Shown here: positions 14,399 to 63,977 of the stretch, in pieces
Numbering within the stretch: the first letter of the stretch is position 1
Layout of the letters: each line of letters starts with the position of its first letter
Virus record (IMG/VR): IMGVR_UViG_3300025640_001000
Source: a virus
Taxonomy: Duplodnaviria > Caudoviricetes
DNA length: 64,000 bases
Strand: one strand, 5' to 3'
Notes under the pieces: generated by a model
What the model was told of the DNA's origin: nothing
Database searches by the model: none
What the model saw: only the letters and a program-made list of their open reading frames with translations
Position numbers and translations under genes: made by a program

Positions 14399-16234
14399 AT
14401 GGCCAGTTTATCAAAAAAATCATTTATATGGATTTCATCCACATTACCTAATCCAGTTTTAACTGAGTTGAGAAACTTGTCTGACTTGATAAGTTCAATT
14501 TCGATATATCAATCTGAGAAATCTTCAAACTATCTCAAAAAGGGTAGCAAGGCAAGTTATAGTGCTACGAAGCAATTTCAAAACGGAGTAGCTTACAACC
14601 AAACTTCAACTGGTTCAATGGGAGTAAATCATGTTATTCAAACTGCGATGGACTTTGACGCAGGTAGAATTATACCCACATTTAGTGAGGGATTTGAAAT
14701 AACTGGATTAACAGGACATTATTCCAACGGAAATGGACCATATAAAATGTCTACTAATTTTAAAAACGACAATGTCGTTTATTTTAACGAAAATAAGTGG
14801 GCAATATGGTATGATTCAGATAAAAATGAATGGGTTCTTACAAATGAACTAATAAAGCACAAGTCACGAACTGAGTATGAATTTATATTAAGAAACGGCA
14901 ACACAGAACCTGATGCCGGCACTTACACCTCGGCCGATGGTACACAAAATGGATACACACCAAGTTCAGTTGGTTCACAAGTTAAAGTGATCATGCCATC
15001 ATTTAGTGAGTCAAGTTCTGTAATTAAAGTTGCAGCCGGTGGAACACACACGCTATTTCTTGATAAATCAAATAATGTGTGGGCTGTGGGGTTGTCTAAC
15101 TATGGCCAAGCAGTCCCAACTGAAATATCTTCACTTCCAAAACGAATTTCAAAACATGATGCGATTGACATAGCAGTTGGTCCTGGTGTATCATTTATTA
15201 CAAAACAAGATGGTTCTGTGTGGACTGTGGGTCAAAACACGAAGGGTACTGGTTTACTAGATAAAAATACACTTCGTAGGCATTCGACTCGGACCATAGG
15301 AACTCTTTTATACAAAGAAAACTTCGGAACTATTCCAAGTTTAACCAAAGCATCAAACGGGGGGCAAGATGATATAATACTTCAGATTAAAGCAAGTGAG
15401 GCAAATTCGTATGTTTTGAAATATGAAAAAATCGATGGTGTATCACGAAAAAACTTATATTCATACGGAAGTAATGAATTCGGACAACTGGGTACTGGAG
15501 ATGCATATTTTGGACTGAACAAAACTCCTGTGTTCGCACAAAACCAATTGGTAACATCAGATTCGGCACGAAATGAAATTCAATTTGACACAGGACGAAA
15601 TTTTTTAATGTGGATTCGTCAAGGTAGATTGTATGGCATTGGCAATTCAAGTTATGGCAATCTTGGGAGACTTCGGACCTCCAATTATGGAAATTCGGTA
15701 GCACAACCAAATCCGTGGGGAAATCTCAAAGCAGTTAAGGTATGTTGTGGCCAGGATTTTTCTGTTGTACTACTAGACGATGGATCTGTTTGGGCAAGTG
15801 GTAATCGTGAAATGAATCGTTTTCCTTCGGCAATAGGTGGAAGCAAAGATACACGTGCTGGAAGTTATTACGTACATGAACAATTTTATAGAATTCTCGC
15901 GGGTGGAGCTCAAGATATAGAGACTGGTCAATTTCATACAATTGTGTTGATGGAAGATGGACGATTGATGAGTTCAGGAGACAACCGATTTGGCCAACTT
16001 GGCCATCCTGGAGCAGTGCAAAATAAACGATCAGTTACTGCTAAATTTCAAAGTATATTGGTTGATGGTAAACCGGTGGTATCTGGTGTGACATATATAC
16101 ACGCAGGTGACTTAAGTACATTTTTCATTATGGACGATTCGTTGTATGCAGTTGGACTCAATAATTACGGACAACTTGGTGATGGTTCCCGAAACAATCT
16201 GACTTCTGCATCAAAAATTTATCCAACTGGATAA
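14399..16234 (+). CDS. RCC1/BLIP-II repeat protein with degenerate N-terminal shared domain (putative virion protein)
   Basis: Repeats VAAGGTHTLFL, GSNEFGQLGTG, GDNRFGQLG, GLNNYGQLGDG. Confidence 0.75.
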   Translation: MASLSKKSFIWISSTLPNPVLTELRNLSDLISSISIYQSEKSSNYLKKGSKASYSATKQFQNGVAYNQTSTGSMGVNHVIQTAMDFDAGRIIPTFSEGFEITGLTGHYSNGNGPYKMSTNFKNDNVVYFNENKWAIWYDSDKNEWVLTNELIKHKSRTEYEFILRNGNTEPDAGTYTSADGTQNGYTPSSVGSQVKVIMPSFSESSSVIKVAAGGTHTLFLDKSNNVWAVGLSNYGQAVPTEISSLPKRISKHDAIDIAVGPGVSFITKQDGSVWTVGQNTKGTGLLDKNTLRRHSTRTIGTLLYKENFGTIPSLTKASNGGQDDIILQIKASEANSYVLKYEKIDGVSRKNLYSYGSNEFGQLGTGDAYFGLNKTPVFAQNQLVTSDSARNEIQFDTGRNFLMWIRQGRLYGIGNSSYGNLGRLRTSNYGNSVAQPNPWGNLKAVKVCCGQDFSVVLLDDGSVWASGNREMNRFPSAIGGSKDTRAGSYYVHEQFYRILAGGAQDIETGQFHTIVLMEDGRLMSSGDNRFGQLGHPGAVQNKRSVTAKFQSILVDGKPVVSGVTYIHAGDLSTFFIMDDSLYAVGLNNYGQLGDGSRNNLTSASKIYPTG

Positions 16235-16238
16235 AATT

Positions 16239-19200
16239 ATGGCCATTGTTAAAAAACGAACCTCTCATGTATGGATCACCTCAGTAGATGGATGTGAAAA
16301 TAAACCTATTGATGATTATTCTGAATATGTTAATTCACTTCTTGCGGTAAATGGTGATAAACAAGAATATATCAGTAAATCACCACACAACATTACCGAA
16401 TTTAATTGTGGTTCTACATATACTTTATTTTCCGACAAAGTAAATTATTATGTTCCCAACTTGGTTGAATCAAATATTGATAAAGATGAAGGTAGAATAA
16501 GTCCTCATATTTTTGAACGATTTGTAATGTATGGTTTAGATGAATATTACCTTGATGCCAACGGAATTTATATTTTAACATCCACATTCAAAAACAGAAA
16601 ACCCACATACACTAATCGTGAGGGAACATGGAAAATATTTTGGGAAACCGACACAAAGTGGAATTTAGTGCCAACTGCATTCAATTCAGTTGAACCTCCA
16701 TTTCTTGATAAACCTTTATTGAATGATCACAATGAACCAACAAGTGGTTTTTATACAGGTCAAAATCAAAAAGGATATACTTCTCATTCTATTAAATCAT
16801 TTGAAATAACTGATTTGATTGATTACTATGTTACTGCAAATGGAAACTACAATGTTACGTTTTTCTTTAAAAATGATCGTCAAACATATCGTCACGAAAC
16901 TAATCGTTGGTGGATTTGGTGGGATTCAAATAAAAACAGATGGGAACTCACTTACTCAGAAAACGATTCATACGAACGACCATATACAGATAGATTGTTC
17001 AATTTAGATGATGATGTAATTGGAGGTTTGTGGGAAAGTTTAGATGGAGTGCAAAAAGGATTGGGTCCCAATTCTCCTGCGTTACCTCCCACACCAACAC
17101 CAACTGCCACTCCGACACCAACTGCTACACCAACTCCGACACCAACTCCGACACCAACTCCGACTGAAGTTATAAATGAAATTGTGGATGTAGCTTCAGG
17201 TGATGATTTTACTTTGATTTTAAAAACCACCGGAAAAGTGGAAGTAACTGGTAACAACGAACATGGTTCGTTGGCAACCGGAGATAGACTTACAAAAGAT
17301 TACAAACGAGAATCAAAAATTTCTGATGTAAAAGCAATTGCGGCGGGAAAACGACATTCTTTATTTTTGAAAAATGATGGTTCTTTGTATGTGTGTGGTG
17401 ACAATTCATATGGTCAATTGGGAAATACTGATGTAACAAGTTCGGTGTCAGACCCAATGTTGGTGGAATCTGCTGACGTGATAAGTATCTCATGTACTGC
17501 GTTTGGTTCTTTGTTCGTTAAAAATAATGGAAAAGTTTATGCGTTCGGATACAATAAAAACGGAACACTTGGAACAGGATCGTTTGATAATATAACAACT
17601 CCTATTGAAATCAACAACAAACATACTTTGACAAATGTCACGATGGGATATGATCCAAAAACCGTGACAAATACAAACGGAAATCAAATGATTCGGGATG
17701 AAGTTTCTAGAAGCTTCAAATCAGTAAACAATAATTGTATAAATTATACAGAAGAACGAGGTTTGGTTTTCGATTTCAATGAAAGAAACGATTTCTTTGA
17801 TATGGGAAATGTTCACAATGAAATATTCAAAACAGGAACATTTTCATTTTCATTTTGGTGCAATCTACGTTCTCATCAATCAACCGAACACAATACACGT
17901 GGTGGAATGTTAATTTCAAAGTGGTATTCAAGTGATGCGTTGTGGTTGAGAAATTCATTTATAATTTATGCTTCAGGAACATTTGTATCTGCACATGAAA
18001 ACTCAGTAACACATATACTTGATGAATCTGGAAACTCTGCTAGTTTACCTCTTAATACTTGGTTGCATATGGCATATGTACTTGAAGACGGAAAACTTAA
18101 CATTTATATAAACGGAGAACAACAACACATTTCCAACAAAAATCACATACATAGATTTTCTGATCAAGCAACCTCCCGATTAGCTTTGGGTATTTTGCAC
18201 CACAACAAAAGCTATGCACTCAATGGAATGATGGATGATTTCAGAATGTTTGATAAAACTTTATCTGATGGTGACATTATGTCGTTGTACAAAAACGATG
18301 CTTATTTTGGTGACGATGTAGAATTAACTGAGTTTCCTGAAATGAAAGAAGTAACATCAGGTTACTCTCATTCATTTTTAATATCAAAGCACAACGAACT
18401 TTATGGTTTTGGTCAAAACGACCACGGACAACTTGGTGATTCAACTCTTGAAAACTCATTTGCTCCAAAAAAAGTGTATGAAGGTAGAATTAAAAAAGTT
18501 TCTGCTGGATCTGCTCATAGTATCGCATTAACTGAAGATGACCGATTATTAATGGCAGGTAGAAACGATGTAGGGCAAATTGGAGCAGGAGCTGCACCTG
18601 GATACAGAAAGTTCACATACATTCAAAAACCAGAGATTGTCAACTTTGCAGCCGGTGCTGGTCATAGTTTGATTTTAAACTATAAAGGCAATCTGATGGT
18701 CACCGGTAAAAATACTGATGGTCAACTTGGAACAGGAAACTTTAGAAATCAAAATACATTTTTAGCAAACAATATTCAAAAGGTTATCAATGTATTTGCT
18801 GGTGCGAAAAATAGTTACTTGTTGTTGTCTAATGGTAAGTTACTTGGAATGGGTGACAATGATTTATATCAGTTAGCAGATGGAACAACATCTGACAGAA
18901 CAGATCCAGTTGAAGTTGGAAACGAAGCAATTCCTCCGGAGACTCCTACTCCTACTCCTACTCCTACTCCAACCTACAATGAGTTTGATACAGATATGGA
19001 GTGTGATGTAACCTTTGATTATTGGTTGCAAAATGCACCAACAAAACAAGGAATGTCAGATTTTGCAAAATATCAAAAAACATTCACATTGAATCCATTC
19101 TCTGTTCAAAGAGTAATGCAATTCGAATTTGCATCTACTCACATAAACGAAGGTAGGCATCTTGAAATAAAAGACTTGGAGTTATCGTCAGAAAAAACTG

Positions 19201-24187: not shown

Positions 24188-26533
24188 ATGAGATATATTG
24201 CGAGATTCGTAGATGGTGATTCTGTGCAAACATTCAAGGATCAGTTTGATGGTGACATCCTTGTAGAGTTTGCATTACTTAAAATGTTAGTGCTTGAGTT
24301 GACTGATGATAATTCAGCTTATTCAAAAGACGATCTTGAAGATTTTCCTGGTGTACTTTACATCAAAGAAGATTTGATAGTTGCATTGGATGATAAAACT
24401 CCTATCAATGAAAAGCAAGTTAACAAACAAAAAGTAGATGCGTATGGTTCTACTTTGCTTGGTACTGTTAATGGTACTACTGAATATATCACTCATTTAG
24501 AGATACTCAATTCGCAAAATTATGAGTATGCAACTGATGCACATGATTATACAACAACTGCGAGTGGTAAAAATGTTGATTGCTTTATCCTCGATACAGG
24601 CATTTTATCTAATAATTATTTTTTATCAAACCGAGTTTTCAAAACAGATTTTTCTACTACGATAAATGTTGAAGGAACTAATCAAGAAGACAACGATGGC
24701 CACGGAACAGTATGTGCAATGTTGATAGCAGGAGATGAATATGGAGTTGCGATTGATACCAATCTATATTCATTGAAAGTATTAAATTCATCTGGCACAG
24801 GAAGTTTTTCAACGATCATCGCAGCCATTGATAATGTTTTGAAATTTCATTCAAATAAAATCAACAACAATCCAAGTATAATAAACATGAGTTTAGGTTA
24901 TGTACCAAGTCCTGAGTCTCCTGTGATTCACAGTGATTTTACAAGTAATGACGATAATCCATTTAAGGATGCGATAAAAGAAGCAATAACAAGTGGAATT
25001 CATGTGGTACTTGCAGCGGGAAATGGATTTAACTCAGATTCAGTTCATTATGGTCCAATGTTATCTGTGTATAGCAATGGAAGTTTAAATTTATCACCGG
25101 AAGAATCTGGTAACAATGATCCTGGTCAAGGAATACCAATTGTGGTGGGAAGTCTTGATAGTGCATCTGCTCATTTAAATAGTAGTCCAAATATTATGTC
25201 TTCGTTTAGCAACTATGGCAAAGGAAACACAATCAATAGTACAGGAGGTCAATTATTGATGCCCAGATGGAATACAACTCAATCAATGGTTGATTCAAAC
25301 GATGGAAATTATTTTGTTGACGAAGAAAGTGGAACTAGTTTTTCTGCTCCGATTGTAACCGGATTATTGTGTATGCACTTAGAAAAAAATCCAAATGCAA
25401 CACCTTTGGAAGCACGTAATTGGTTGTTGCAAACTGCATCTTCAAATCAAATAGATAATTTATTCGAATATACTTCAGTTGAAAGTACATTTGATGTGTC
25501 ATGGAACAAAGAATCAGAAATTCTGATTTACGAAACAAACACACCAGGTGTGAACTTAACGGAAACTGCGTCTGCAAACTCGGTTGTTCAGATTTTAAGA
25601 ACTTCGGTAAATGATATTAGTGATGTAGAAGATAATATTGCCCAACTGAATTTAGTAAACGAAGATTGGTGGAATGTTGTATCGGTATCTGAGCAGAAAC
25701 TTAAATTAACACCATTTACAACAGGTCAAGATATAAGTTATGATGTAGATGATTTTAATCTTAGTTATGAAGGCCAACTAAAAATAGCAAATTTAGTAGG
25801 TACACACGAATCATCGGATGGAGTAAAATTTTGGCAAAGAATGTCTACCGAGAACCGATTGTATGATGAAAATACATCAATATCAGTTTATCTTGGTGCA
25901 TTAGAACAAACTAATAATATACGAGCATTTAATCCGTATCAAATATATAATCCCGTGTGGGGTGCAAACGAAGAATTGGATTTAAATTCTATGTTTTCAG
26001 ATTCTCCTTTGCTGAATGTAAAACTTGAAACTTCACGTGGAGAGCAACCTATGCCTATAACTTTTAAATTAGTTGCAGGTAATTTTCCGACTGGAGTTGC
26101 TTTAAATGAAGATGGAACTTTTTCAAAATCTATTGACTATGAACGATCTGTTTATGAGCATGGTTCGGTTATCATTGAAATAAGTTCCGAATACTCGTCA
26201 CCATTCGCAAAGGTGTATAAGGTGATTGATAACGGAGTACCTACAAAAATGACAACAACTGAAATCACAAAAGATGGATTCGTATGGATGGGAAGTGAGT
26301 GTGGCCAAACAACGAATATTATGTTAAACACTCAAACATCTTTAATAAAAGAAGTTATCAGAGTCAGAGATAACAAATGCGAAGTTTGGAGAAACGATAT
26401 GCCGACCACATTAACCCCATTTGAATCAATAGAAGTAGGTAACATTTACTATATAAAATTGGTTGATGAAAAAACCGGAACTTTGTCTGATGTATTTCGT
26501 GACAACCAAAATATGTTGATTATTAGTTGTTAA
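24188..26533 (+). CDS. Subtilisin-like serine protease (S8) with prodomain and C-terminal shared domain
   Basis: Catalytic motifs ILDTG, GHGT, AAGN, SGTSFSAP. Confidence 0.9.
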   Translation: MRYIARFVDGDSVQTFKDQFDGDILVEFALLKMLVLELTDDNSAYSKDDLEDFPGVLYIKEDLIVALDDKTPINEKQVNKQKVDAYGSTLLGTVNGTTEYITHLEILNSQNYEYATDAHDYTTTASGKNVDCFILDTGILSNNYFLSNRVFKTDFSTTINVEGTNQEDNDGHGTVCAMLIAGDEYGVAIDTNLYSLKVLNSSGTGSFSTIIAAIDNVLKFHSNKINNNPSIINMSLGYVPSPESPVIHSDFTSNDDNPFKDAIKEAITSGIHVVLAAGNGFNSDSVHYGPMLSVYSNGSLNLSPEESGNNDPGQGIPIVVGSLDSASAHLNSSPNIMSSFSNYGKGNTINSTGGQLLMPRWNTTQSMVDSNDGNYFVDEESGTSFSAPIVTGLLCMHLEKNPNATPLEARNWLLQTASSNQIDNLFEYTSVESTFDVSWNKESEILIYETNTPGVNLTETASANSVVQILRTSVNDISDVEDNIAQLNLVNEDWWNVVSVSEQKLKLTPFTTGQDISYDVDDFNLSYEGQLKIANLVGTHESSDGVKFWQRMSTENRLYDENTSISVYLGALEQTNNIRAFNPYQIYNPVWGANEELDLNSMFSDSPLLNVKLETSRGEQPMPITFKLVAGNFPTGVALNEDGTFSKSIDYERSVYEHGSVIIEISSEYSSPFAKVYKVIDNGVPTKMTTTEITKDGFVWMGSECGQTTNIMLNTQTSLIKEVIRVRDNKCEVWRNDMPTTLTPFESIEVGNIYYIKLVDEKTGTLSDVFRDNQNMLIISC

Positions 26534-34629: not shown

Positions 34630-35168
34630 TGATTTCACACGATAAGAAATTTATTTTTGTTCATGTTCCAAGAACTGGTGGAACGAGTTTAGAATCTTTT
34701 TTTTGTGAATCGCAACTTAAACACATCCATTTTAAACAAAAACATTCTAGGCATGAACATGAGTTACAAGATCATATTGATTATTTTTCTTTTTCTTTTG
34801 TAAGAAATCCGTGGGAAAGAATGTTGTCGTTTTACCTTTTTGATATAGTAGGTAGCACTAAATACTCTTTGTATAATTGGTTAAAATTAACTCGTATAAG
34901 AAATCGTTTTGCTCAATCTATGAGTTTTTTTATTATGCACAACGAAAAACCTAGAGTTAATTTTGTTGGAAGATATGAAAATTATCATACAGATGTGAAA
35001 TATATTTGTAACAAATTAAACATAGAATACGCAGAACTACCTGTTTTGAACAAAACAAATCATAATTATTATGTTGATTACTATGACGAGAAAACAAAAA
35101 AACTAGTTGAAAGTATGTATAAAGAAGACATACTGAATTTTGAATATGAATTTGGAAAAAATAACTGA
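34629..35168 (+). CDS. Sulfotransferase family 2 protein
   Basis: MISHDKKFIFVHVPRTGGTS, FVRNPWERMLS; start overlaps the previous stop (TAATG). Confidence 0.8.
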   Translation: MISHDKKFIFVHVPRTGGTSLESFFCESQLKHIHFKQKHSRHEHELQDHIDYFSFSFVRNPWERMLSFYLFDIVGSTKYSLYNWLKLTRIRNRFAQSMSFFIMHNEKPRVNFVGRYENYHTDVKYICNKLNIEYAELPVLNKTNHNYYVDYYDEKTKKLVESMYKEDILNFEYEFGKNN

Positions 35169-38445: not shown

Positions 38446-40302
38446 ATGGCAGAGTTAGCACAAAGTGAAGATACCTTAAAATATTACCTCGGTTGGTACG
38501 GTGAGTGCAGCGATGAATTGTTGTGTGCAAATTTCGATTTAACATTCGGAGCAAATCGTGACAAAATTTTTAAAGTTTATCAAATAAACAATATTGGTGA
38601 CAATTATGCTTATTTTGATGGAATGCTTACACCTGAGTTGGATCAACTACAAGGATTCACAGAACTTTTATGTGGTCATGCGTATTTGATTGTTTTAAAT
38701 GATGGTGACGGAGTGCTAGATATACCTGGATTTGTTCACACGAACAGTGAAGATTCAGAACTTCAACGATATTTAACTGCGAGTTGTGAAAATCAAGATT
38801 TACTTGCACAACAAGAATTGGTACAAGATAGAAAAGCACTTACCTATTATCTTGGTTGGTATGGTGGATGTGGTGATATATGTGAAAATTTTGATTTATC
38901 ACCGGTTCATGTTAGAAGCAAATTATTTCGTGTATTTCAAATAAACAAATTTAACGACAATTATACGATTTTTGAACCAACATATACTCAAAAGCAAGAT
39001 GCACTTGGTTTACAAGGTTTTACTCAACTTGAATGTAGTAAAATGTATTTGTTGGTGTTGGAAATGGGTGATGCAGTTTTAGAACTTGATAATTTCACTT
39101 ATACAAAAATTGATTCAGACGATTCTGGACGAATAATCAATGAATGCCTCACAGGTCCCCGTGGATTGAATCCTGGAATACCAAGAGTTGAATTGTTACC
39201 CGAAAGCATAGATATATTCAACGATAAATGGTACGATACAATTGAAGAACCAAAAGCAGATGCAGATTTGTTTAATGTTAATCTTAACTCTGATGGACAA
39301 GTCGTAGAAGACAATTCAATTTATTGTGGAAAATCTATTGTATTTGACGGAGTGATGGGTGCGTATGCTAATCTTGGTACATACAAAGAAAAATTACAAC
39401 TTATGACAATGTGTGTTGAATTTACGATTGATAGCAATGTTGGTAATCGTGAAATCGGAGAAGCAAGTAAAAACTCACAATATATTGTATTTCAGCAAAA
39501 CGAACGAAAAGATGAAAAAAATAGTGGTTTTTATGTTAAATATTTAGAAGATGAAGACACAGAAACTCAGGGACGATTAGAAGTTGGTGTAGTTAAAAAC
39601 AACGGAACTCGGTATTATTTAAAGTCGAATCCATTTTCAATAGTTGCTGACAAACGGTACATGGTATTTTTTGTGATATCAAAAACGATGATTTATTTGT
39701 ATGTTGAAGGTAATCTTGTTGGTACGATGAATAAAACTCCGGGAATCGATTACCACGAAACTCATACAATTCATCTTGGAAGAAAAAGACCAATTGGAAC
39801 AATTCAGGATGCGTATTTTAAAGGAAGAATACATAGATTTGTAATTTGGGCAGAATCACTTGGTACAGACTTTATATATAATTATTATTTACAAAATCGT
39901 TGTAAACCACCGATTGGAGTTGTATATAAATCATGTGAGTATATTTGGAATCCTCCTGCAATACCTGACTTTACAATATCCGCACCAACCACACGAACAT
40001 CTAGAATAGGTGTTGTATACCAAGTATGTTCAACTGGAGGTTCTGATGATTCAATTCAGTTGCCGGCATTACATACACTTGTGGTTCGTCCAAAAGTTCC
40101 ATATCCAAAAGTAATTGGTGTTAAGTATACACCTGGTAATTGCCCATCAGATACCAATTTTTCAAACTACTTTGAAAATTTGGAAAATCAACAAAAATGG
40201 ACCAAACCAAATTCCACAACCGGGGTGATCAATCACGATCCAATGCAATTGCCATCCGACCAAAATACTCCTATACCTGATGATGGTTGGGGAGACAAAT
40301 AA
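38446..40302 (+). CDS. Protein with two tandem GWYG domains and a LamG-like domain
   Basis: YYLGWYG..C..F.L...QIN..DNY..QGFT.L.C..YL.VL occurs twice; LYVEG..IHLGR..FKGRIHRFVIW. Confidence 0.7.
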   Translation: MAELAQSEDTLKYYLGWYGECSDELLCANFDLTFGANRDKIFKVYQINNIGDNYAYFDGMLTPELDQLQGFTELLCGHAYLIVLNDGDGVLDIPGFVHTNSEDSELQRYLTASCENQDLLAQQELVQDRKALTYYLGWYGGCGDICENFDLSPVHVRSKLFRVFQINKFNDNYTIFEPTYTQKQDALGLQGFTQLECSKMYLLVLEMGDAVLELDNFTYTKIDSDDSGRIINECLTGPRGLNPGIPRVELLPESIDIFNDKWYDTIEEPKADADLFNVNLNSDGQVVEDNSIYCGKSIVFDGVMGAYANLGTYKEKLQLMTMCVEFTIDSNVGNREIGEASKNSQYIVFQQNERKDEKNSGFYVKYLEDEDTETQGRLEVGVVKNNGTRYYLKSNPFSIVADKRYMVFFVISKTMIYLYVEGNLVGTMNKTPGIDYHETHTIHLGRKRPIGTIQDAYFKGRIHRFVIWAESLGTDFIYNYYLQNRCKPPIGVVYKSCEYIWNPPAIPDFTISAPTTRTSRIGVVYQVCSTGGSDDSIQLPALHTLVVRPKVPYPKVIGVKYTPGNCPSDTNFSNYFENLENQQKWTKPNSTTGVINHDPMQLPSDQNTPIPDDGWGDK

Positions 40303-44517: not shown

Positions 44518-44519
44518 TT

Positions 44520-47513
44520 ATGACAGATTGTTTTCCAGCATCCTTCACAGAATTTAACTCAGACAACTTGTCTGCGTCAGGTGTAAGTGTATCTATTTTT
44601 CAGGCAGGTTTAAAACTTGCGTTGAATTCGGATTTGTTTACAACTGAAGGTAAACTTCCGATTGAAGGTAAGATATTTTTTAATTCGTTTAAACTTGCAA
44701 CTATTGCCTGCAAACCATTTGCAACAACGAATGATAAAATTCAAGATATATCCAAGTGGGTTGAAATTGCCGATAGAAAAATTTACTGCATGATAAATGG
44801 AAACTGCTATGAAGGAACAATCACCGATCCAGACGGATCACAATACTCAGGATCATCATTTCAGGTAAATTTAACACAGGTGGGTGAAACGGTTGTTTGT
44901 ACAGAAGATGCTAAAGAATGTCCTGATGGAAGTTTTGTATCAAGAGATCCTAATAATAATTGCGAGTTTCCTGAGTGTCCGTTGGTATCAGAACCATCTA
45001 CAACACCCACTCCTACTCCCACACCAACTCCACAAGTAACAATTCCAGATTCATCAACCAAGTTTACGGACATAAAAAATTGTATTGATAAAAAACCACA
45101 ATATCATTCATTGTTTAATTTGCAAGAAAATACTATGGATGACGGAGAGTTTGTGTGTACAGATGAATTGGATGGTCAAATTTCATTTTCAGTTCGTTCT
45201 GGTATGCCATTAACATTTCAATTATACTATAATAAATTACAATCAGGTGCATTTTCTTCGGCAGAGGATGTTCCTTTGGGTCGCATTGGTTCTCTTGTAT
45301 TTTTTGAAAAAGATGTTTCTGATTTATCACCTTCTAATTTTTCTGACCGAAAAGTTTGTTCGTTTTCAAAATACATTTATGGTGATGACGAATTGTTGAT
45401 TCAAATTGACTCAGCAACTGCAAGTAAGTTTGAAGTTAAAGAAGGATGTTATATTGCCGAATTTGGAAACTCAGATGATGTAAGTGTGAGTGAATGGGCA
45501 ACAGAAACTTTATTAGACGGTGATCTTACTATAACGGTGCTTAAAGAGTATAACGTTGCAACACCAACTCCTACACCTACACTTACACCAACTCCAACTG
45601 GAACTCTCACACCCACACCTACACCGACTCCCACACCAACTCCTACTGCACAATCATACAAAATATTTCCACTTCAACAAAAACCAGAGTCGTTGACATA
45701 TTACATGGGTTGGTATGGAATATGTGGATATGATTGCAAACCATACTCGTTGGTTGACGATCCACAAATAAGAAACAAGATTTTCAGAGTTTTGCAAATA
45801 AATAAACTCAACGACAATTATTCAATTTTTAATGCCGAATATGAACCTGCAATTGATGCATTTCAAGATTTTCTTGAATTGGAATGTCAACGACCTTACT
45901 TGATTGTATTAAGACCAGGTACCGATTCTATTCATATACCTGGATTTGTAGAAGCATCTGCAATTTCAGAAAATGCAGGTTTATTGACATTGTGGTGTGG
46001 ACCTATTACATATACCGCAGGTACACCAACTCCGACACCAACTCCGACACCAACTCCGTCACCTACGGGTACACCAACCGATACAACACCACCAACTCCA
46101 ACTCCATCACCATCACCAACTGTATCACCAACTGCAACATTGACCCCGACTCCAACTGTATCACCAACTGCAACATTGACCCCGACTGCAACCGAAACAC
46201 CTACTGCTACACCAACTTCAATGGTTGATCATTGTATCAAAAAAGATTGCGAAATATCGGTAGTAGATAGCAAGTATAATTTTGGAGATATGGGTTATGT
46301 AATGCCATATAAATTGAATGTGGGTATATACAAATTAACCGGAGTTCCAACCAATCATCCTATATTTCTAAAAGACCACGATGAATCAAAAATAAAGTTG
46401 GAAGGTGACGAAGCAAACAAAGTTACTGACTCAGGAAAAACAGGATACACGGGAGATGTTACATTGACTGTTTACTCTGACTTTGGTGTGGTGAGTTATG
46501 CGTGTGTATATCACGGATATATGGGTGGAGAAAACAATTTACAATTTAGTAATTCATGTGGTGTGGGTTACGATGGTTTACCGGAAACGAACGATTCAAC
46601 CGAAGGTGAAACTGAAGAACCACCTGCCGAAGAACCACCTGAAGGTGAAACTGAAGAACCACCTGTTGAAGAACCACCTGTTGAAGAACCAACTGAAGGT
46701 GAAACTGAAGAACCAATTTTAGAACTTGAATTTAGGTGGTATGAAATAAACGGAAAAGAGATACTGCAAGTTAAAAATCTTTTGCAACCGACACACGAAG
46801 TGGACGGAGAAAAAGCATTTGGTAACAGAGATATGTCGTATTGGTCAACGTTGTATGGTGTAGCACCAACTTCAATGGAATCAAGTTATACACTTGCCCA
46901 CCAAGCATGGCCAGATGCAGCTGTAAGTGAGAGTCATTCTGATGCAGAAATCTCATTTGATGGATTAACAATTAAATTAGATGGTTCTCAATCGTCTAAC
47001 GATGGTTATTTACAACTTTATGTCAATTTAGCAGAATCAAAACATATATTTCTTGGTGCAAGTGATGCGGTAAATTTATCTGGAGATGTTCCAATGTTTA
47101 TTTATTCAGGTGACAACTCGGATTCAGAAAATAGCGCACTCGGTAAAACCAATATGTGGCCAGTTGTTGTAAAAGGTGCTGATTCAGAATCTACAATGGA
47201 CTTTGAATCAATGTCCAACGAATATCAACAACTTCCACAGGCCGACCGGAATGATCATTCTGAGGCAAAGGGTGAAGTGGTTTATGAAAATTTAGAAGGT
47301 GGGTTTTATGGAATCGTAGTTTATGATGCGAGTGGAAATCCACTTGCAAAATATCTACCAATTAATCTTCAGGATAAACTAAAAGAAGACGTAGGTAATA
47401 CCATAAAATTGCAAAGTTTTTATTCAGAGAAAGATGCAATGAGTATCTTCATGTGGGGTACACTTGTGTATGTGGAAGCATATACAATTGAAGCAGATCA
47501 AATTGCATTTTAA
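44520..47513 (+). CDS. Mosaic protein with central GWYG domain, long PT linkers, CTxDAKxCPDG module, cupredoxin-like domain and E/P-rich repeats
   Basis: [10 protein letters not shown]; [28 protein letters not shown]; [15 protein letters not shown]; (EEPP)n. Confidence 0.7.
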
Positions 47514-52880: not shown

Positions 52881-52885
52881 TTAAA

Positions 52886-54855: not shown

Positions 54856-54884
54856 GATTTGTAACGTATTTACTACTTATATAT

Positions 54885-55766: not shown

Positions 55767-55792
55767 TAATGTGATTTTGTATCTATTTATAT

Positions 55793-56179: not shown

Positions 56180-56190
56180 TATCAGGTGAA

Positions 56191-56499: not shown

Positions 56500-56535
56500 T
56501 ACAGTAAATTCAATATATTCTATATTTATAGTGTA

Positions 56536-57804
56536 ATGGCAACAATTAGTTCAAAATTTCAGTATGTTTGGTATGGCACGTGTGAGTCAGAACGTTGTGA
56601 CGATGTTCTGTTTGATAATTGGTATGAAATGAAAGATGAACTTGAAAGTGCGGTAGTCGAAATTTCAACTTATGAAGAAGGTGAGTTTAAATCATATTCT
56701 CCATCAGTAGCAAATTCTACTTCATCTTCATCTGATGACAAACCAAACACATTACTCGGATTGCGATGTGGACATATGTATTTGTTTACATTAAAAACAA
56801 ATAAAAGTATAACAATACCAAATACATACGTTTCGGGCCCTTTATCTAAAGTTTTGAAGTATGGTGCATCCGAAACTTGCTCAACAATAAGTGATGCAGA
56901 TTTACTTGGATGTGGTGGTCAAGATTATACTACATTCTACATGAACGATGCAGTTGTTGGAAATTGGACTCAACCTGACGGCACCGAATCAGTTAGTTCT
57001 CATAAAACTGCGATTTATACAAATGTTGCCGGAGAAATTTACACAGGATCACTTGGATTCAGTGAAAAACCGTCTGACGAGTCGGGTTATACATTGCTTA
57101 CCGAGTTGATTTGGTATCAAAGTAATGCTTCGGATCAAAATTCTTATATTTCAATTAAACTTGATGATTATGAAAAAACTGCATCAGGTGCATCAACAAC
57201 TCCGATAAATGTCGTTAATTTGACATTAAATGGAAAAACAATTGCGTGGTTTACCATCAATGGAGGCATAACAGAATCAACTCAAATTTATTATTTTGAA
57301 AATGCTTCTTGTTATCGTGGTAAAATATCTCCAGATGACTTTATACCAGACGCTGAAAATGGATTTGCAGGTAGAGTAAACGTATTACTCGGAACAGAGC
57401 AAGCAATTCATACATGGCCAGAACTTTGTACGTTCAGAGATCCGAATGAAGATGCAGAATCAGAAACTGCAATAACATTTGATGCATTTAATGTTAGCAG
57501 TTCTCCAAATGAAGATAACACACGAAGTGATATTGAATTGAGTCAATTTGTTTGGAAGGGTGTGTTACAACTTCCACCCGAACAAACTGGTACTGATGCG
57601 GTAACATTAGAATCTCCGAAAGTTATTACTGTGAAAAGTGAATCGGGTGCTGAATTAGGACGAGTTAAATATTTAAGACACGAACCTGTAAAAATAAATG
57701 ATAAAGTGTTTATGTATTTTTATGTAGAAAGTGGTCCACTTGATGGAAACTGCTTGTTTGGTGTGGTGAATAATGATGAATGTATATTAAGGGGTGTTAA
57801 TTAA
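56536..57804 (+). CDS. GWYG-domain modular protein
   Basis: YVWYGTC..RC...GLRCGHMYLFTL..ITIP; CYRGKI module. Confidence 0.65.
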   Translation: MATISSKFQYVWYGTCESERCDDVLFDNWYEMKDELESAVVEISTYEEGEFKSYSPSVANSTSSSSDDKPNTLLGLRCGHMYLFTLKTNKSITIPNTYVSGPLSKVLKYGASETCSTISDADLLGCGGQDYTTFYMNDAVVGNWTQPDGTESVSSHKTAIYTNVAGEIYTGSLGFSEKPSDESGYTLLTELIWYQSNASDQNSYISIKLDDYEKTASGASTTPINVVNLTLNGKTIAWFTINGGITESTQIYYFENASCYRGKISPDDFIPDAENGFAGRVNVLLGTEQAIHTWPELCTFRDPNEDAESETAITFDAFNVSSSPNEDNTRSDIELSQFVWKGVLQLPPEQTGTDAVTLESPKVITVKSESGAELGRVKYLRHEPVKINDKVFMYFYVESGPLDGNCLFGVVNNDECILRGVN

Positions 57805-57805
57805 A

Positions 57806-58537
57806 ATGGGAACAATAAATAATTTACATCAAATGGGTTGGTATGGTTCTTGTGGATTTGAACAAGAATGTGAAGATTTTTATATGGTCAATTTAGACAA
57901 CGCAAGTCGCGAAAATCTTGACTCAGTTGTTAGAACACATGATATATCAAATGGAAGAACATTCACCAAATTTACTGCATACGACTTACATGATAGTAAT
58001 ATCGCAAGTAAAATTGGTGGGGAAACAAATCGTTCAGTTAATTTTGATTCGTATTTCAATTATACATTTGAAAGTATGGAATGTGGTTCAGGATATACAG
58101 TTCATTTATCACAATCAAGAAATTCATCAGGAGCAAGTTCCGTTGAAATTGAAAACTTTAATGTAGCAGATGGTACATCATTTGTATCAAACGATTGTTC
58201 TAATGTAGTTGCTTCACCGTGTACAACTGATGGTTATTTGTCAATGATGGCAAATTCCACAAATACGGTTGAAATAACCGGAGTTGCAACTTTGATAACA
58301 AAGGATATTCAACTTGAAGGAACATTCTTTATTCCACCAAGAGATTCATCTGCTAGTTATTTACCGAAATCAATTGATGTTTCAATAGATGGTGGTTATT
58401 TTGCAACAATAACATACAATGGTGATTGGGACACAAGCATGGGTTCAATCATTTACTTTAAAACAGACACAGATTTGTGTTATAGTGGTGCAATTGCACC
58501 GGAAACAAATCAAGTTACTTTAACTTTAACTAATTAA
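57806..58537 (+). CDS. GWYG-domain modular protein
   Basis: MGWYGSCG..ECEDF...FESMECGSGYTV; C-terminal CYSGAI module. Confidence 0.65.
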   Translation: MGTINNLHQMGWYGSCGFEQECEDFYMVNLDNASRENLDSVVRTHDISNGRTFTKFTAYDLHDSNIASKIGGETNRSVNFDSYFNYTFESMECGSGYTVHLSQSRNSSGASSVEIENFNVADGTSFVSNDCSNVVASPCTTDGYLSMMANSTNTVEITGVATLITKDIQLEGTFFIPPRDSSASYLPKSIDVSIDGGYFATITYNGDWDTSMGSIIYFKTDTDLCYSGAIAPETNQVTLTLTN

Positions 58538-58552
58538 TGGGGTGAACAGAAA

Positions 58553-59881
58553 ATGATATTAAACAGAAGAATAAATTTAATTTGGTATGGTCGTGGAAAT
58601 ATAGAAAATGAGTGTGTTGCATTTGCGTTGCATAATGTTACAGAAGTATCAAATGCAATATCTGACGTGTATTGTGTAACAGACGGAGGTTCAAGTAACA
58701 CATTTCAAGAAAACACATGGAAGACATCAAAACCAAGTCAATTAGCCGGATTCACAGAATTGAAATGTGGAAATCTTTATGTGGTTGTATTGAATGATGG
58801 AGCAACTATTGATATTCCTGAAGCAGTTGTTGTTTATGGTGGTGAATCAGTGAATCCTGCTGATATAGTTAGTGTTCTTCCGAATAACGATGGTGGAACT
58901 AATCCAGGTCCTGATCCTGAACCACCAACGGGAATTTGTGGTCCTGTAGGTCACGATGAAATTGTAGTTATTGCTGGTTCGGGTGACGCCTACAACGCAA
59001 ACTTCAATCACAAAACTAATTCACAAATCTCAGCAGTAGCAACAATTACTCCAACTGCTGGTATGGTAGACAGTGCCTCGGATATTAAATTTTATTTTCC
59101 AACGAGTATGTTGACTAAAAACGATAGTCTTGGAAGTTATACTTTCTCTTTAGACGACAGTGAAATTATGTCTATGGATACAGAAATCAATTTAGCAGGT
59201 GCAGATTTTTATATATCAATAAACTCTGTGGTACCTGCTTTTAGTGGTTGTTATAAAACTACAGGTAATATTTCAGGACCTGATCCTTATCCAATTGAAA
59301 AAGTAGGTGAAACCGATGAGAGAACACCAACCCCATCTCCTTCGCATACGGTAACTCCAGATGTTCCCGTGGATGCACAAGCAACTTGTTTTGCGGACAA
59401 TGCAGCGGAATACAAAATGGTATACGAAGCAGCGTCCAATGCAACTGCCGAAACTCTGGTAACGACTGATAATGTTAAAGTTTACAAGAAGGGTAGTGCA
59501 GATGCCCTAGGCGATGCAGGATCCAACAATTCGGATTTAGCCGCAACTATGTTGCGTGATGAGATGATAGGAAAGGCTGCGAGTGACGGTGCTAACAGTA
59601 AACACTCGTTTTGTATTTGGTTTAATGTAGAACTTGTAGATAATGCAAACGACCCGAATGATGATGTCATTCTAAGTGCTACGAGTACGGGTAACGGGAT
59701 TACAACTGGGGATACACTTGTCGTTGCAAACGGCACACTGGTGAAGGATTTGAATAACGGGTCCAACAAGTATGGAAAATTTGTTTTGGTAAATACTCCG
59801 AAGATTTATGTAAATTCCGAAACTCCATCCTGTGTAACCACATCAGACGACGGTGACGGTGTGGTATCGTTTAACTTCTAA
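58553..59881 (+). CDS. GWYG-domain modular protein
   Basis: LIWYGRG..ECVAFAL...GFTELKCGNLYVVVL..IDIP; Pro linkers. Confidence 0.65.
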   Translation: MILNRRINLIWYGRGNIENECVAFALHNVTEVSNAISDVYCVTDGGSSNTFQENTWKTSKPSQLAGFTELKCGNLYVVVLNDGATIDIPEAVVVYGGESVNPADIVSVLPNNDGGTNPGPDPEPPTGICGPVGHDEIVVIAGSGDAYNANFNHKTNSQISAVATITPTAGMVDSASDIKFYFPTSMLTKNDSLGSYTFSLDDSEIMSMDTEINLAGADFYISINSVVPAFSGCYKTTGNISGPDPYPIEKVGETDERTPTPSPSHTVTPDVPVDAQATCFADNAAEYKMVYEAASNATAETLVTTDNVKVYKKGSADALGDAGSNNSDLAATMLRDEMIGKAASDGANSKHSFCIWFNVELVDNANDPNDDVILSATSTGNGITTGDTLVVANGTLVKDLNNGSNKYGKFVLVNTPKIYVNSETPSCVTTSDDGDGVVSFNF

Positions 59882-59901
59882 TTGAGTTAGCATGATTTGC
59901 A

Positions 59902-62900
59902 ATGACTGCACAACACGGTACAACAACTACAAGTAGTATAGGTTGGTACGGCAGTTATTCAGATGAATCAGGTGATTATTGCGAACCGTTTGACCAAGAA
60001 TTATACGAATCTCAATTAAGACACTTTATTCTTGTAGGATCAACGGGTAAACCATCTCGTTTGTTTTCCGAAAGTCAACATCCATGTGGATCAGCAAGTT
60101 TTGTTTATAGCAGAAAACATGAAGCAGTTGTTATTCCTGATTATCATGCAGGATACATCAATGAAGCAGACTCTGGTAGAGTTCGTCCAAAAACAAAATA
60201 TACTCTTGAATTTGAATTGCAAGGTTTAACTGATGATTTTTACGGTGCCAATGCAACAATCGATTCAAAATACAAAATTACCAACACGATAATCAATCGT
60301 AAACCTGTTTACAAAAAGTTATTTGAGGATTGGTTCATATTTTTTGATCAAGACCGACTGAGGTATGTTCTTGCCAACGGATTAATTGATTACAACAACT
60401 TTTTAGTTGGTGAAATACAAAGACCCAACGGAATATATCGTTCGTTGTTGGATGATGACCAAATTGGAATTTCAGAAGGAGTAGAAGAGTTCGCAGAAAA
60501 AACAACGTGTGAAGTGGATATACAATATCAAGTACGAACTGTATCTGGTGCATATTTTCCGAAAAAATACAAAGAGTATTTTGAAACATCTGAAATAAAA
60601 GGTTCTGCGAACAGAACCATTTCAGAAAATACTCATTTAGCATCTTCTTGTTTTCTTGATGTTAAAAAGTTAGAACTTTCCACCGAAATCGGTCGTGGAT
60701 TTGGTTCAACTGTTTCACCTAAGTTTACTCAAGAATTTGAAACAGATTGCACAAATTCAGGAACTTTAAAAATTTCATATGAAGCAGATGTTGATCCCAA
60801 TTGTGATGTAACCGCAGTTGAAATTGAGCATATAAATGAAGGTGAACGTATTGTAAATTTGGTGGAACGATACGATGCAAATTATACAACCACTTCATTG
60901 AGTGTAGATGAGGTTGTCAACAACAAAACGATGTATCTTGGAGACAATCCTCCAACAATTACACAAAATTCAAACGGACAAAAATCGTTTTTGTTTGACG
61001 GAACAAATTGTTTTAAAATCAGTTCTTTGTATGCTCAAAATGCAGTAAACAACGAAGAATTTTCAATATTCTTAAAATATAAACCTGCAACTGAATCACA
61101 AACAGGTGTATTAATGTCTAGGTGGCAAATCAACGAAGCATCAACTATCAATTTAAAATCAACTCATCTTGTATACACACACAAACTTCAAACTTACAAA
61201 AATACCAACATTTACTCACTTGATAAACCAACAAAAGATGTTTGGCATAATTTACTGATAACATACAACCAATCCACCACCACCGATAATCTGCAAATTT
61301 ATTTGGATGATCAAACTGCAATTCCATTTGATACAACTTCAGAAGAATTTAAAGATAGTGATTTACCATTTGTAATTGGTGGTTTTTTGTCAAACAATGG
61401 AACTTTAAAAAATGGTTACATTGGAGAAATAAATGATATACGATTTTACGACAGACAACTTACAATAGAAGAAAAACAACAATTATTTTCCGGAATCGAT
61501 TACGATTCGACTCGTCAAACTTACAATATTCCTGAAACATTCAATAAAACTGAGTACGAGCATTTGTTTTACGAAAACACAGAAACTCTTGTTAGTGAAA
61601 CAGATTTTAGTCTTCCTGTAGATATACAAATAAAAGAAATGCACTCAATTGATGATATAACTGCGATAAGTTACATGGAAAACGACAAATTGCAGTTGGA
61701 ATTTTTTCACGATGGAACAAGTTCGTATAAACGAACAACTGCATATCCAGAAGCAACTAAATTTAAGATCACGTCTGATAAAATATTTGTTTGTTATACA
61801 AATCATTTGTTTATATTAAATTTAAATAAATCAGAATCAGGTGCAGTTTCTGGAATCAGTTCATTTACAGAATTAACTTCTTATATTCACAATGATTTTT
61901 TTGATGTATCTGCAAGTGGAAAATTTGTATTTGTTACCAGATACATAGACGGAGAAAAAATTGCGACAAGTTATTTGCTAACGGGATCAACTCTTACTCC
62001 AGTATCATTTTCGGGAGACATTTCAAATGTAACTGATTTTTGTACACTTGATGAATTTGTGTTGATTACGTTGAGTGGAAAAACCATGATATTATATAAA
62101 GAACTTGATGACATTTATGAAATCAAGTGGTTACAGGATATACAAGAACCAGAAACGATAATCAAAAGTAAAATTATATCATGCGTTCAAGATGAAAAAA
62201 CCAAGTATTTTATTGCAAGTAGATACGAAACAAATGATTTAAGAAGTTATTCATCACGATTCAAGTCATCCACTTATATCAAAAATAACGTCGGAATTCT
62301 TAAATTAAGAAAAATCAATGAATCTTTGACTAAAATAAATGGTTATGAAATCGAAGAAACTCCGTTTCAAGTAATCTGCCCTCCGTATGATGTTCATGGC
62401 AACGGATTTTTAAATACAAAAATGTTTGGAGATCAACTTGGATTTTATGATAACTTTTTAGTTGTTGCTACTCCTGGATATAAATCGTGGTGTTATCAAC
62501 TTACATCTGATTCTCAGTATGTATTTGTTACTGCATTAAAATCTTTGACGATTGATGGGTCATTTGTAAATTCATTGAAAAACTCAATTCTGATAAACAC
62601 TAAAACAATTGGAAACGAAGCAGCTTTCTTTAACAACCGAGACAAACTTGGTAGTTTTTCATTCACATCAAAAAGTAACAGTGAACTTCTTTTGCATAAA
62701 CAAACTAAATTGCCGTTTACTGAATACGGACAAAAATTAAAAACATGGTTTCGTTTTGGTGATGATTATGTCAACAACGATGAAAAGTTTGTGATGTTGG
62801 ACCGATCAGGAAACTACAATCATCTTAATTGTTATTTTAAAAATTCAGATAATACATTTGTTTCTCCGTTTGATAATCGTTTCGTGGGACCAACCGAAGG

Positions 62901-63411
62901 AGATTCATCTATCTTTTTGAGTGGAAACACTAGAATGGATTTTTCATGTTCACTTGAAAACAAAAGTTTTTCAATTAATGTTTGGTATATGCCAACTCAA
63001 TTAAACACAGGAACAGAATACAATGTGGTAATATCTTCAAAATATGAAGCATCTGATACAGAAACTGGATTTTGTATATTGGCAGATGGAAGAACCAAGT
63101 CAGGAGATACTATTTTAGAACCAACACCATCGGTAACTAATGTATACGAATGGGTAATGGTAACTGTGTGCTATAATCACGAAGCAAAACGATTGAATCA
63201 TTATGTAAATTCAATTCCATCTGTGTGGTATGATGATGTTGATATTTCACTTGATGATGACATTTTTAGAATCGGAAGAGAATTCGAAACAAATGATACT
63301 AATGGATACATTGGGTATTTAGATGATATCAAAATATACGATACATTGTTAACTCCAACTGAGATTCAGAGTGAGTATAAAAAAAGTTGGAAATATGAAT
63401 GGTTACAGTGA
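59902..63411 (+). CDS. GWYG-domain + two LamG domains + possible beta-propeller protein
   Basis: IGWYGSY..YCEPF..PCG..IPDY..DSGRV; WHNLLITY..INDIRFYDR; WVMVTVCY..LDDIKIYD. Confidence 0.72.
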   Translation: MTAQHGTTTTSSIGWYGSYSDESGDYCEPFDQELYESQLRHFILVGSTGKPSRLFSESQHPCGSASFVYSRKHEAVVIPDYHAGYINEADSGRVRPKTKYTLEFELQGLTDDFYGANATIDSKYKITNTIINRKPVYKKLFEDWFIFFDQDRLRYVLANGLIDYNNFLVGEIQRPNGIYRSLLDDDQIGISEGVEEFAEKTTCEVDIQYQVRTVSGAYFPKKYKEYFETSEIKGSANRTISENTHLASSCFLDVKKLELSTEIGRGFGSTVSPKFTQEFETDCTNSGTLKISYEADVDPNCDVTAVEIEHINEGERIVNLVERYDANYTTTSLSVDEVVNNKTMYLGDNPPTITQNSNGQKSFLFDGTNCFKISSLYAQNAVNNEEFSIFLKYKPATESQTGVLMSRWQINEASTINLKSTHLVYTHKLQTYKNTNIYSLDKPTKDVWHNLLITYNQSTTTDNLQIYLDDQTAIPFDTTSEEFKDSDLPFVIGGFLSNNGTLKNGYIGEINDIRFYDRQLTIEEKQQLFSGIDYDSTRQTYNIPETFNKTEYEHLFYENTETLVSETDFSLPVDIQIKEMHSIDDITAISYMENDKLQLEFFHDGTSSYKRTTAYPEATKFKITSDKIFVCYTNHLFILNLNKSESGAVSGISSFTELTSYIHNDFFDVSASGKFVFVTRYIDGEKIATSYLLTGSTLTPVSFSGDISNVTDFCTLDEFVLITLSGKTMILYKELDDIYEIKWLQDIQEPETIIKSKIISCVQDEKTKYFIASRYETNDLRSYSSRFKSSTYIKNNVGILKLRKINESLTKINGYEIEETPFQVICPPYDVHGNGFLNTKMFGDQLGFYDNFLVVATPGYKSWCYQLTSDSQYVFVTALKSLTIDGSFVNSLKNSILINTKTIGNEAAFFNNRDKLGSFSFTSKSNSELLLHKQTKLPFTEYGQKLKTWFRFGDDYVNNDEKFVMLDRSGNYNHLNCYFKNSDNTFVSPFDNRFVGPTEGDSSIFLSGNTRMDFSCSLENKSFSINVWYMPTQLNTGTEYNVVISSKYEASDTETGFCILADGRTKSGDTILEPTPSVTNVYEWVMVTVCYNHEAKRLNHYVNSIPSVWYDDVDISLDDDIFRIGREFETNDTNGYIGYLDDIKIYDTLLTPTEIQSEYKKSWKYEWLQ

Positions 63412-63482
63412 TTCAACTGAAGAACAAAAAAACAAGCAAAAACCAATAAAATATTATACTTATAAATAAAGGAGTTTTACTT

Positions 63483-63977
63483 ATGGCAATTATTACATCA
63501 AGATATGCATTGGGTTGGTACGGAATATCGTATGCCTCAAATGACACATTGTGTTCAGAATTTAATTTAACGAAAAACATTGGAAGTTACAAAATGACTA
63601 ACAATGGAGGAAATTGGACAAAAACTTTTGTACGTGGAACATCACTTCCTGCAAGTGCAACTGAAGAAGTTGTTAATGGTTTGCTTATTTTTGGATACTC
63701 TTCCACAGGTGCACCTTGGGTTTGGAGTTTGCAAAAAGAAGAATCTGCTTTTTATGATCCAGAAAGTCCATTTGTTTCATCTGATCAAGCAGGCCAACCA
63801 TTTCGTGGAGGAATTGCATTCACCAAAAATGATGAAGGTGACGCAATTCTTGCGTGTGGAAGAATGTACTTTATTATCAACAATCGTAGTCTTGAGTTTG
63901 ATATACCAGGATTTGTTCCGAGTGCAGACGGAGTTGATATGGGAAGAATTGATACAACCAATAAAAGTGTTAAATAA
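63483..63977 (+). CDS. Stand-alone GWYG-domain protein
   Basis: LGWYGISY..CSEFNL...LACGRMYFII..FDIPGFV..MGRI; AAGGAG SD and TACTTAT upstream. Confidence 0.7.
   Translation: MAIITSRYALGWYGISYASNDTLCSEFNLTKNIGSYKMTNNGGNWTKTFVRGTSLPASATEEVVNGLLIFGYSSTGAPWVWSLQKEESAFYDPESPFVSSDQAGQPFRGGIAFTKNDEGDAILACGRMYFIINNRSLEFDIPGFVPSADGVDMGRIDTTNKSVK

Follow-up and report, generated by a model that had tools for sequence, protein, structure and literature searches.

Copies of the GWYG domain in the window

We looked at a 64,000-nucleotide stretch of viral DNA (IMG/VR record IMGVR_UViG_3300025640_001000), the whole of which is called the window here, and at a domain, GWYG, that recurs in the proteins it encodes. 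The original prediction, made from the letters of the window, had listed eight clear copies of this domain and three degenerate ones, had described a unit of 100-160 amino acids with the motif (Y/L)GWYG-x-C-x(3-6)-C near its start, and had read it as a position-independent module mounting adhesins and enzymes on the virus particle. A hidden Markov model (HMM) was seeded with the eight copies and searched against all 359 six-frame open reading frames (ORFs, named below by their first nucleotide). It recovered exactly these eight copies, in seven ORFs, with independent E-values (i-E) of 1e-22 to 1e-43 and nothing else below 0.02, meaning that all the copies listed as clear, and only those, were found again. 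They align over about 110 columns in which W, Y, G and two cysteines are invariant, and the motif reads as it had been described. Identity among the window paralogues is 18-42%. A deep profile was also built from 165 domain instances of metagenomic proteins. In total, the window holds eight clear GWYG copies, one supported, one probable and one possible, all on the + strand:

38452..38796 (+): GWYG, first member of a tandem pair, N-terminus of ORF 38446-40302 (618 amino acids; payload Laminin_G_3 at residues 344-473); deep profile i-E 4e-38, seed HMM 7e-43
38815..39153 (+): GWYG, second tandem copy of ORF 38446; i-E 7.5e-35
45672..46034 (+): GWYG, internal copy (residues 397-517) of ORF 44484-47513 (1009 amino acids); i-E 1.2e-34
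56542..56889 (+): GWYG, N-terminus of ORF 56536-57804 (422 amino acids); i-E 7e-22
57806..58231 (+): GWYG, N-terminus of ORF 57806-58537 (243 amino acids from the ATG); i-E 1.8e-24
58553..58849 (+): GWYG without the C21/C114 pair, N-terminus of ORF 58553-59881 (442 amino acids); i-E 5e-24
59908..60195 (+): GWYG, N-terminus of ORF 59902-63411 (1169 amino acids; two LamG domains); i-E 1.1e-11
63483..63977 (+): stand-alone 164-amino-acid protein, a single GWYG with a large insertion; seed HMM 2.5e-26, deep profile matching both halves
26279..26470 (+): divergent GWYG, C-terminus (residues 698-761) of the S8 subtilase ORF 24188-26533; found by deep profile and hhalign
16293..16502 (+): probable divergent GWYG, N-terminus of ORF 16239-23600 (2453 amino acids; RCC1/LamG/FG-GAP); weak profile match
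14399..14680 (+): possible, heavily degenerate copy, N-terminus of the RCC1 protein ORF 14399-16234; no support of its own

The unit first proposed is one homologous domain with a core of about 110 residues; the stand-alone protein is longer because of its internal insertion. The Shine-Dalgarno-like AAGGAG noticed ahead of this last gene is indeed there, 8 nt upstream. For the gene opening at GTG 57794, the true start was taken to be ATG 57806, since the orthologues begin MGKVNNL.

The three degenerate copies fared unequally. The subtilase, which carries Peptidase_S8 at residues 134-424, is supported as ending in a copy of the domain by the deep profile (i-E 6.5e-7 for the last ~90 residues in the six-frame search, 9e-8 on called proteins) and by hhalign (95%, E 5.6e-8); this copy is without the C27/C76 pair. 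At the N-terminus of ORF 16239 a copy is probable (deep profile i-E 0.002-0.012; hhalign 74%, E 2.8e-5 over 80 columns). In ORF 14399 the deep profile found no match at the N-terminus. Residues 1-193 of this ORF resemble residues 1-187 of ORF 16239 (BLASTP, 29%, 1e-11), and a copy there is plausible by position and statistically unsupported.

Directly behind the GWYG position, four proteins, including one of 309 amino acids just beyond the window, share a second domain of about 70 residues, with the motif GRI-P-x-F/Y-E-x-F-x-x-x-G-L...Y and no Pfam match:

60169-60393: second domain, ORF 59902 residues 90-164
14657-14860: second domain, ORF 14399 residues 87-154
~16500-16800: second domain, ORF 16239
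L011 5030-5959: second domain, on contig L011

The domain begins at the protein N-terminus

The position of GWYG was counted for 178 domain instances in 159 matched proteins. It begins within the first 20 residues in 154 of them (87%); most of the remaining instances are the second member of a tandem pair, and about six lie truly inside the protein. The module is therefore not position-independent as had been proposed, the more so since the Trp of WYG stands at a fixed offset from Met1: it is residue 17 in 78 cases, 12 in 34, 16 in 12 and 11 in 10. Among the 154 N-terminal instances in Met-starting proteins, Met1 is followed by Ala in 83 and by Gly in 22. In the structural model presented below, the first strand consists of residues 2-5 and is predicted with high confidence. 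Because of the fixed Met1 offset and the placement of this strand, we infer that a free N-terminus is part of the GWYG domain, which would explain why signal peptides are absent. Indeed, as first noted, no carrier of GWYG has a hydrophobic signal-like N-terminus.

In the window, two copies depart from the N-terminal rule: the one at the subtilase C-terminus, and the internal one of ORF 44484, whose placement is kept in a relative (contig L008, 8153-9988). Pro/Thr linkers had been described as frequent. They follow 39 of 143 family instances, while in the window such runs flank only the ORF 44484 copy, on either side (residues 360-390 and 514-543).

Cysteine pairs and predicted fold

Cysteine occupies four columns of the alignment in 87-93% of 127 instances. 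C21 and C114 are both present in 107, both absent in 13 and mixed in 7 (Fisher p 6e-12), and C27 and C76 are both present in 116, both absent in 7 and mixed in 4 (p 1.4e-8), these p values being computed as if the sequences were unrelated. The four cross combinations show no association. The copies of the window behave alike: those without C21 (ORFs 58553, 59902 and 63483) are also without C114, and the subtilase copy has neither C27 nor C76. Since the cysteines are lost in pairs, two predicted disulfides, C21-C114 and C27-C76, are favoured over a four-cysteine metal site, and the pattern points to a domain stabilised by these two putative bonds. Trp17, Tyr18 and Tyr80 are nearly invariant as well.

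AlphaFold2, given 127 sequences with residues 1-122 of ORF 38446 as query, returned a small beta sandwich with two short helices (predicted local distance difference test, pLDDT, 88.1; predicted template modelling score, pTM, 0.82). From the eight window copies only, the model was poor (pLDDT 64) and Foldseek found no match to it. With the 127-sequence model, Foldseek detected nothing at E<=0.001 in either the PDB (template modelling, TM, score <=0.32) or BFVD, with TM<=0.35 by query length. VIA-align against 48,161 PDB representatives reached a best Z of 4.2 and none >=5, in a setting where unrelated models commonly reach 7-8. A structure search of the ESM Atlas gave TM<=0.54, and a feature search of the same resource gave no usable match. 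In these searches, GWYG has no recognisable structural relative, from which we do not conclude that the fold is new. A prediction of a three-copy complex scored 0.00 against a mark of 0.42, which weighs neither for nor against self-association.

Altogether, the copies align as one homologous domain with a confident AlphaFold2 model and without a match to a known family. GWYG is a previously unannotated, single homologous family of about 110 residues, modelled as a beta sandwich.

The family beyond the window

The family was looked for in sequence collections. When 1.84 billion cluster representatives were searched exhaustively with the profile, 337 proteins, all metagenomic, matched at E<=1e-3, of which 137 at E<=1e-10. 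A word-indexed search matched mainly orthologues, some of them TARA-labelled, on contigs of up to 207 kb. In its own genome, the array continues past the end of the window: over about 40 kb, eight further clear copies head proteins of 309, 856, 121, 437, 1140, 1285, 681 and 1179 amino acids, and this walk met only further giant modular genes. The clear copies in the genome of the window consequently number at least 16 over about 105 kb, lying in long head-to-tail gene runs, with tandem duplication occurring within single proteins. Two contigs, L001 and L008, match the gene order of the window (ClpC, NT5C, DUF285, sulfotransferases, 2OG-Fe oxygenase, aminotransferase, CCA enzyme, exonuclease) and bear GWYG arrays of their own, and a third, L009, corresponds to the region downstream.

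The authors of the original prediction had not recognised the family, and profile searches place it in neither Pfam nor PHROGs. Against Pfam-A (2025), hmmscan of the eight carriers gave matches on the payloads and none over GWYG. The 127 isolated instances gave three weak matches to PF21916, the second domain of Mtd (best E 2e-4; no window copy among them), and one match each to two other families (E 0.002-0.009). Against PHROGs v4, the carriers had no match over GWYG, and the 127 instances gave three single weak matches to different families (E 4e-4 to 9e-3). The best PDB chain by sequence profile was a plant abscisic acid receptor at E 0.32, that is, noise. The literature retrieved under 'GWYG' consisted of influenza fusion-peptide papers. 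Among GTDB genome contigs, one 26-residue match in a Bacteroidetes metagenome-assembled genome was not counted.

Payloads are exchanged behind the conserved domain

The fusion of GWYG to unrelated payloads of adhesin or enzyme type, as first proposed, was borne out, and these payloads were found to be swapped between related genomes. The payload domains identified in 69 longer family members are Big_13, Y_Y_Y, LamG, Calx-beta, Ig_J, fn3, Big_2, PKD, FG-GAP, a glycine-rich domain and DUF6174, a set typical of extracellular binding proteins. Among PHROGs, the LamG payloads match families that carry the labels baseplate wedge subunit and virion structural protein. These matches are the sole links to a virion, and they support an anchor circumstantially.

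Comparison with contig L008 made the exchange visible. ORF 58553 (442 amino acids) and its positional orthologue (604 amino acids, with Y_Y_Y/Ig-type domains) have only their first ~150 residues in common. ORF 38446 matches its orthologue in the tandem GWYG unit and at the LamG end; between these two parts they differ by an insert of about 470 residues. In L008, pieces matching ORF 44484 are split between two separate genes. In these alignments, related genomes retain GWYG while exchanging what comes after it. This exchange at positional orthologues, the N-terminal rule and the paired cysteines are new with respect to the original prediction.

Genomic context

The window is low in G+C (32-38%), and almost all of its long ORFs are on the + strand, in one-directional gene runs. 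It also encodes a ClpC-like double AAA ATPase, a CCA-adding enzyme and the S8 subtilase, as well as metabolic genes (alanine dehydrogenase, inorganic pyrophosphatase, NUDIX hydrolase, 2OG-Fe dioxygenase and class V aminotransferase), and the following features:

5385-5796 (+): full-length transfer-messenger RNA (tmRNA); Rfam RF00023, 122.8 bits; ARAGORN tag peptide AEAEFSALEEAEAVLVA
1795-3596, 7292-7855 and 34572-35783: five to six sulfotransferase-like paralogues; PF03567, 30-50% mutual identity
3600-4259: FkbM methyltransferase
5887, 11006, 14387, 24176, 31199, 35794, 40336, 47564, 49474, 52344, 55784 and 56523 (+): examples of sites of the motif TATTTATA

The motif TATTTATA has 20 matches in the window, 17 of them on the + strand, where 6.9 would be expected. 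It mostly lies 4-40 nt upstream of the start codon of the first gene of a run, as at 56523, where it heads the run starting with ORF 56536, and it also stands at 5343, about 35 nt upstream of the tmRNA gene. Most genes headed by it are devoid of a Shine-Dalgarno sequence. TATTTATA resembles a promoter whose transcripts would have very short leaders. Metatranscriptome libraries of three studies yielded short contigs that contain parts of ORFs 56536, 57806, 58553 and 59902 (56566-61716) at 95-100% identity; we do not claim transcription of these ORFs, since DNA carry-over is possible.

The contigs of this genome reach 492,783 bp. The 1169-amino-acid protein of ORF 59902 is listed with an identical sequence in 72 blocks of the assembly collection, and at least 14 DNA runs labelled marine metagenome contain most of one 5.5-kb stretch. 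Megablast of 20 kb of the window gave no match among deposited phages, and tblastn with the ClpC-like protein and the alanine dehydrogenase gave matches that were distant or host-like only and of no use for placing the element. tmRNAs and CCA-adding enzymes are known in huge phages, and similar gene suites can also sit on large plasmids (PMC7162821). The tmRNA, the CCA-adding enzyme, the ClpC-like ATPase, the one-directional runs and the contig size form a context typical of huge phages, and the element is probably a megaphage. Three independent assemblies of the genome (L004, L005 and L006) stop no more than about 11 kb past ORF 59902, a region in which short-read assembly may be broken by the repeated modules.

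Other shared N-termini were seen. Dockerin-like, Asp-rich repeats (GD-x-x-x-x-G-x-I-x-x-x-D...) head giant proteins at 31213-31420, at 35805-36010 and at L013 20507 onward, and form another shared N-terminal module in this gene array. Yet another N-terminus that recurs (CC-H/Y-DD-Y/F ... V/I-Y-x-A/V-F) is present at L013 3908, L013 19502 and L009 3941, and downstream of the window it heads a 2017-amino-acid protein with a glycine-rich domain and a 330-amino-acid protein. Two unrelated proteins of the window begin with a near-identical peptide, MQSIKLKDLLPEG at 52356 and MAIIKLKDLLMEG in the CCA-adding enzyme at 52883 (an in-frame ATG within ORF 52835); the CCA enzyme of the relative (L008 15607) begins MPTIKLKDLLLEG. 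Finally, two adjacent paralogues (10434-10967 and 11019-11567, 45% identical) have a weak match to nucleoside 2-deoxyribosyltransferases.

What GWYG may do

Tail fibres, tailspikes and some head-decoration proteins attach through an N-terminal domain. GWYG is the conserved N-terminal module of a large paralogous family of modular, adhesin-like proteins in a marine lineage of megaphage size, and by analogy it would be an attachment module, a docking role that we regard as plausible and put forward tentatively. It would form a constant proximal end joining varied distal payloads (LamG, Ig-like domains, RCC1 and FG-GAP propellers, the glycine-rich domain, the protease) to a single shared partner, for which a structural particle protein is the likeliest candidate, and its disulfides would be made after the particle has left the cell, hardening the joint. 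We consider an anchor the most economical reading; it fits a domain that requires a free N-terminus, is present once per protein, is kept amid distal exchange, carries binding payloads and has a chemistry suited to the extracellular space.

The serious rival is that GWYG is a glycan-binding module of the carbohydrate-binding module (CBM) or lectin type, which would hold these proteins on a glycan of the host surface or on a putative sulfated glycan made by the genome itself; we see this as a real possibility, if rather an unlikely one. It would account for the cysteine pair that links the ends of the domain, the near-invariance of Trp17, Tyr18 and Tyr80, the PT-rich linkers behind 39 of 143 instances, and the several sulfotransferases and the FkbM methyltransferase of the window. 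Binding modules are usually at the ends of secreted hydrolases, and one GWYG copy ends the subtilase; moreover, the best structural matches, weak as they are (Z 4.1-4.2), are the C-terminal beta-jelly-rolls of subtilases. However, Pfam CBM families match 0 of the 127 instances, no CBM was prominent in the fold searches, and placement at Met1 in 87% of instances with a fixed offset is not expected of a pure binding module. Many payloads are already lectin-like (LamG), so that a second glycan binder would be redundant. More remote still from docking, GWYG could be simply the inherited first domain of a duplicated family (perhaps serving as a folding nucleus, as a spacer or for self-association) with recombination acting downstream. 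The long head-to-tail runs, the tandem duplications within one protein and the 18-42% identity of the window paralogues, as for an old local expansion, agree with this, but the strong conservation of residues and of both cysteine pairs over 337 clusters suggests a specific constrained function, and the domain was retained while all behind it was replaced. We hold this explanation to be quite unlikely.

GWYG proteins might also be outside the virion altogether, as free adhesins and enzymes released or held on the host surface, the domain being an export or sorting tag. Polymorphic secreted proteins have a conserved N-terminal module and variable C-terminal parts, a layout resembling this one; a protease is among the payloads, and the disulfide signature suggests life outside the cytoplasm. 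Yet there is no hydrophobic signal-like stretch, the N-terminus being the first strand of a folded domain, a folded and disulfide-prone domain of 110 residues is unusual for such a tag, and no secretion-system genes turned up nearby in scans of the window ORFs, which makes this very unlikely in our view. Least probable of all, GWYG would be a cohesin-like socket receiving the dockerin-like N-termini of neighbouring giant proteins in a cellulosome-like assembly. The Asp-rich repeats that open ORFs 31213 and 35805 and a 3004-amino-acid protein encoded downstream call this to mind, as does the modelled beta sandwich. Contrarily, each protein has a single domain, seldom two, placed N-terminally, as a plug on each cargo and not as the repeated socket of a scaffold; cohesins are missing among the structural matches listed by Foldseek and VIA-align, and Pfam Dockerin_1 is not found at E<=0.001 on ORFs 31213 and 35805. 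We give this explanation hardly any weight.

Several points weigh against docking on a virion. Families for capsid, portal, terminase, sheath, tube and baseplate are absent among the ORFs scanned in the 64-kb window and the ~40 kb downstream. Since TATTTATA precedes GWYG genes, the tmRNA and metabolic genes alike, it gives no sign of a 'late structural' regulation. Tandem doubles and one C-terminal copy are not expected of a simple fibre anchor, and the p values of the cysteine pairing ignore relatedness among the sequences. The tandem GWYG unit found nothing by tblastn in 50,697 deposited phage genomes, pattern scans of IMG/VR with two window proteins and one subfamily alignment found no relatives, and no characterised virion is known to carry GWYG. 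Both the phage nature of the element and its proposed virion link are argued here indirectly, from sequence. The earlier suggestion that the stand-alone copy is the basic decoration subunit is, in our view, speculation.

Taken further, docking by GWYG would mean a universal plug: one site on the particle of an abundant marine megaphage would take at least 16 different cargo proteins through a disulfide-locked N-terminal GWYG, a cellulosome-like logic on a virion. We think this doubtful as it stands; if true, the phage would carry an exchangeable library of host-binding tools (lectins, propellers, Ig arrays and a protease). Whatever its role, a family outside Pfam, PHROGs and the PDB, with no close structural neighbour, is an annotation blind spot, and it marks about 100 kb of giant, otherwise unexplained genes in an element recurring across ocean metagenomes. 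As an attachment point, it would give a handle on the host-recognition apparatus of uncultured megaphages, help to predict particle proteins and offer a display scaffold. Even as a glycan binder, its profile would annotate hundreds of protein clusters.

Comparison with known systems

Like cargoes of the cohesin-dockerin system, the proteins of the GWYG array are many and each carries one small module, with PT linkers and with dockerin-like motifs in neighbours. Here, in contrast, GWYG would be the plug of each cargo; no scaffold with repeated receptor domains was seen in the genes scanned, and no cohesin fold was among the matches listed. Jelly-rolls at subtilase C-termini recall GWYG in that the window's own subtilase ends in a divergent copy. 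The structural matches concerned are KP-43 (1wmd; Z 4.2, 3.2 A over 76 residues) and Tk-SP (3afg; Z 4.1, 3.7 A over 78 residues), at 5-12% identity and with Z well below the 7-8 of unrelated models, which reflects a common small sandwich arrangement only. With CBM2, GWYG has in common a beta sandwich of about 100 residues, a cysteine pair joining the ends (predicted in GWYG), conserved aromatics and Pro/Thr linkers. It differs from CBM2 in having 0 of 127 Pfam CBM matches, no signal peptide, a start almost always at Met1 and a second, internal cysteine pair.

Head-decoration proteins such as T5 pb10 and T4 Hoc are comparable in that a small binding domain bears exposed Ig-like or lectin-like domains, with payloads drawn from a similar repertoire. 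Hoc attaches by its C-terminal domain, and T5 and T4 each have one such protein, not a library; no similarity of GWYG to pb10 or Hoc was detected. A parallel in layout is given by the anchors of fibres and tailspikes, such as the particle-binding domain of the P22 tailspike and the N-terminal modules of the four CBA120 tailspikes. There, too, a conserved N-terminal module is combined with exchangeable receptor-binding or enzymatic parts, several paralogues occur per genome, and related genomes keep the N-terminus and swap the remainder. No sequence or fold similarity of GWYG to these anchors came up in the searches, and its attachment to a particle is a proposal. Compared with known multi-fibre phages, the GWYG genome has far more copies, at least 16, some of them in tandem and one at a C-terminus, in a domain with two predicted disulfides.

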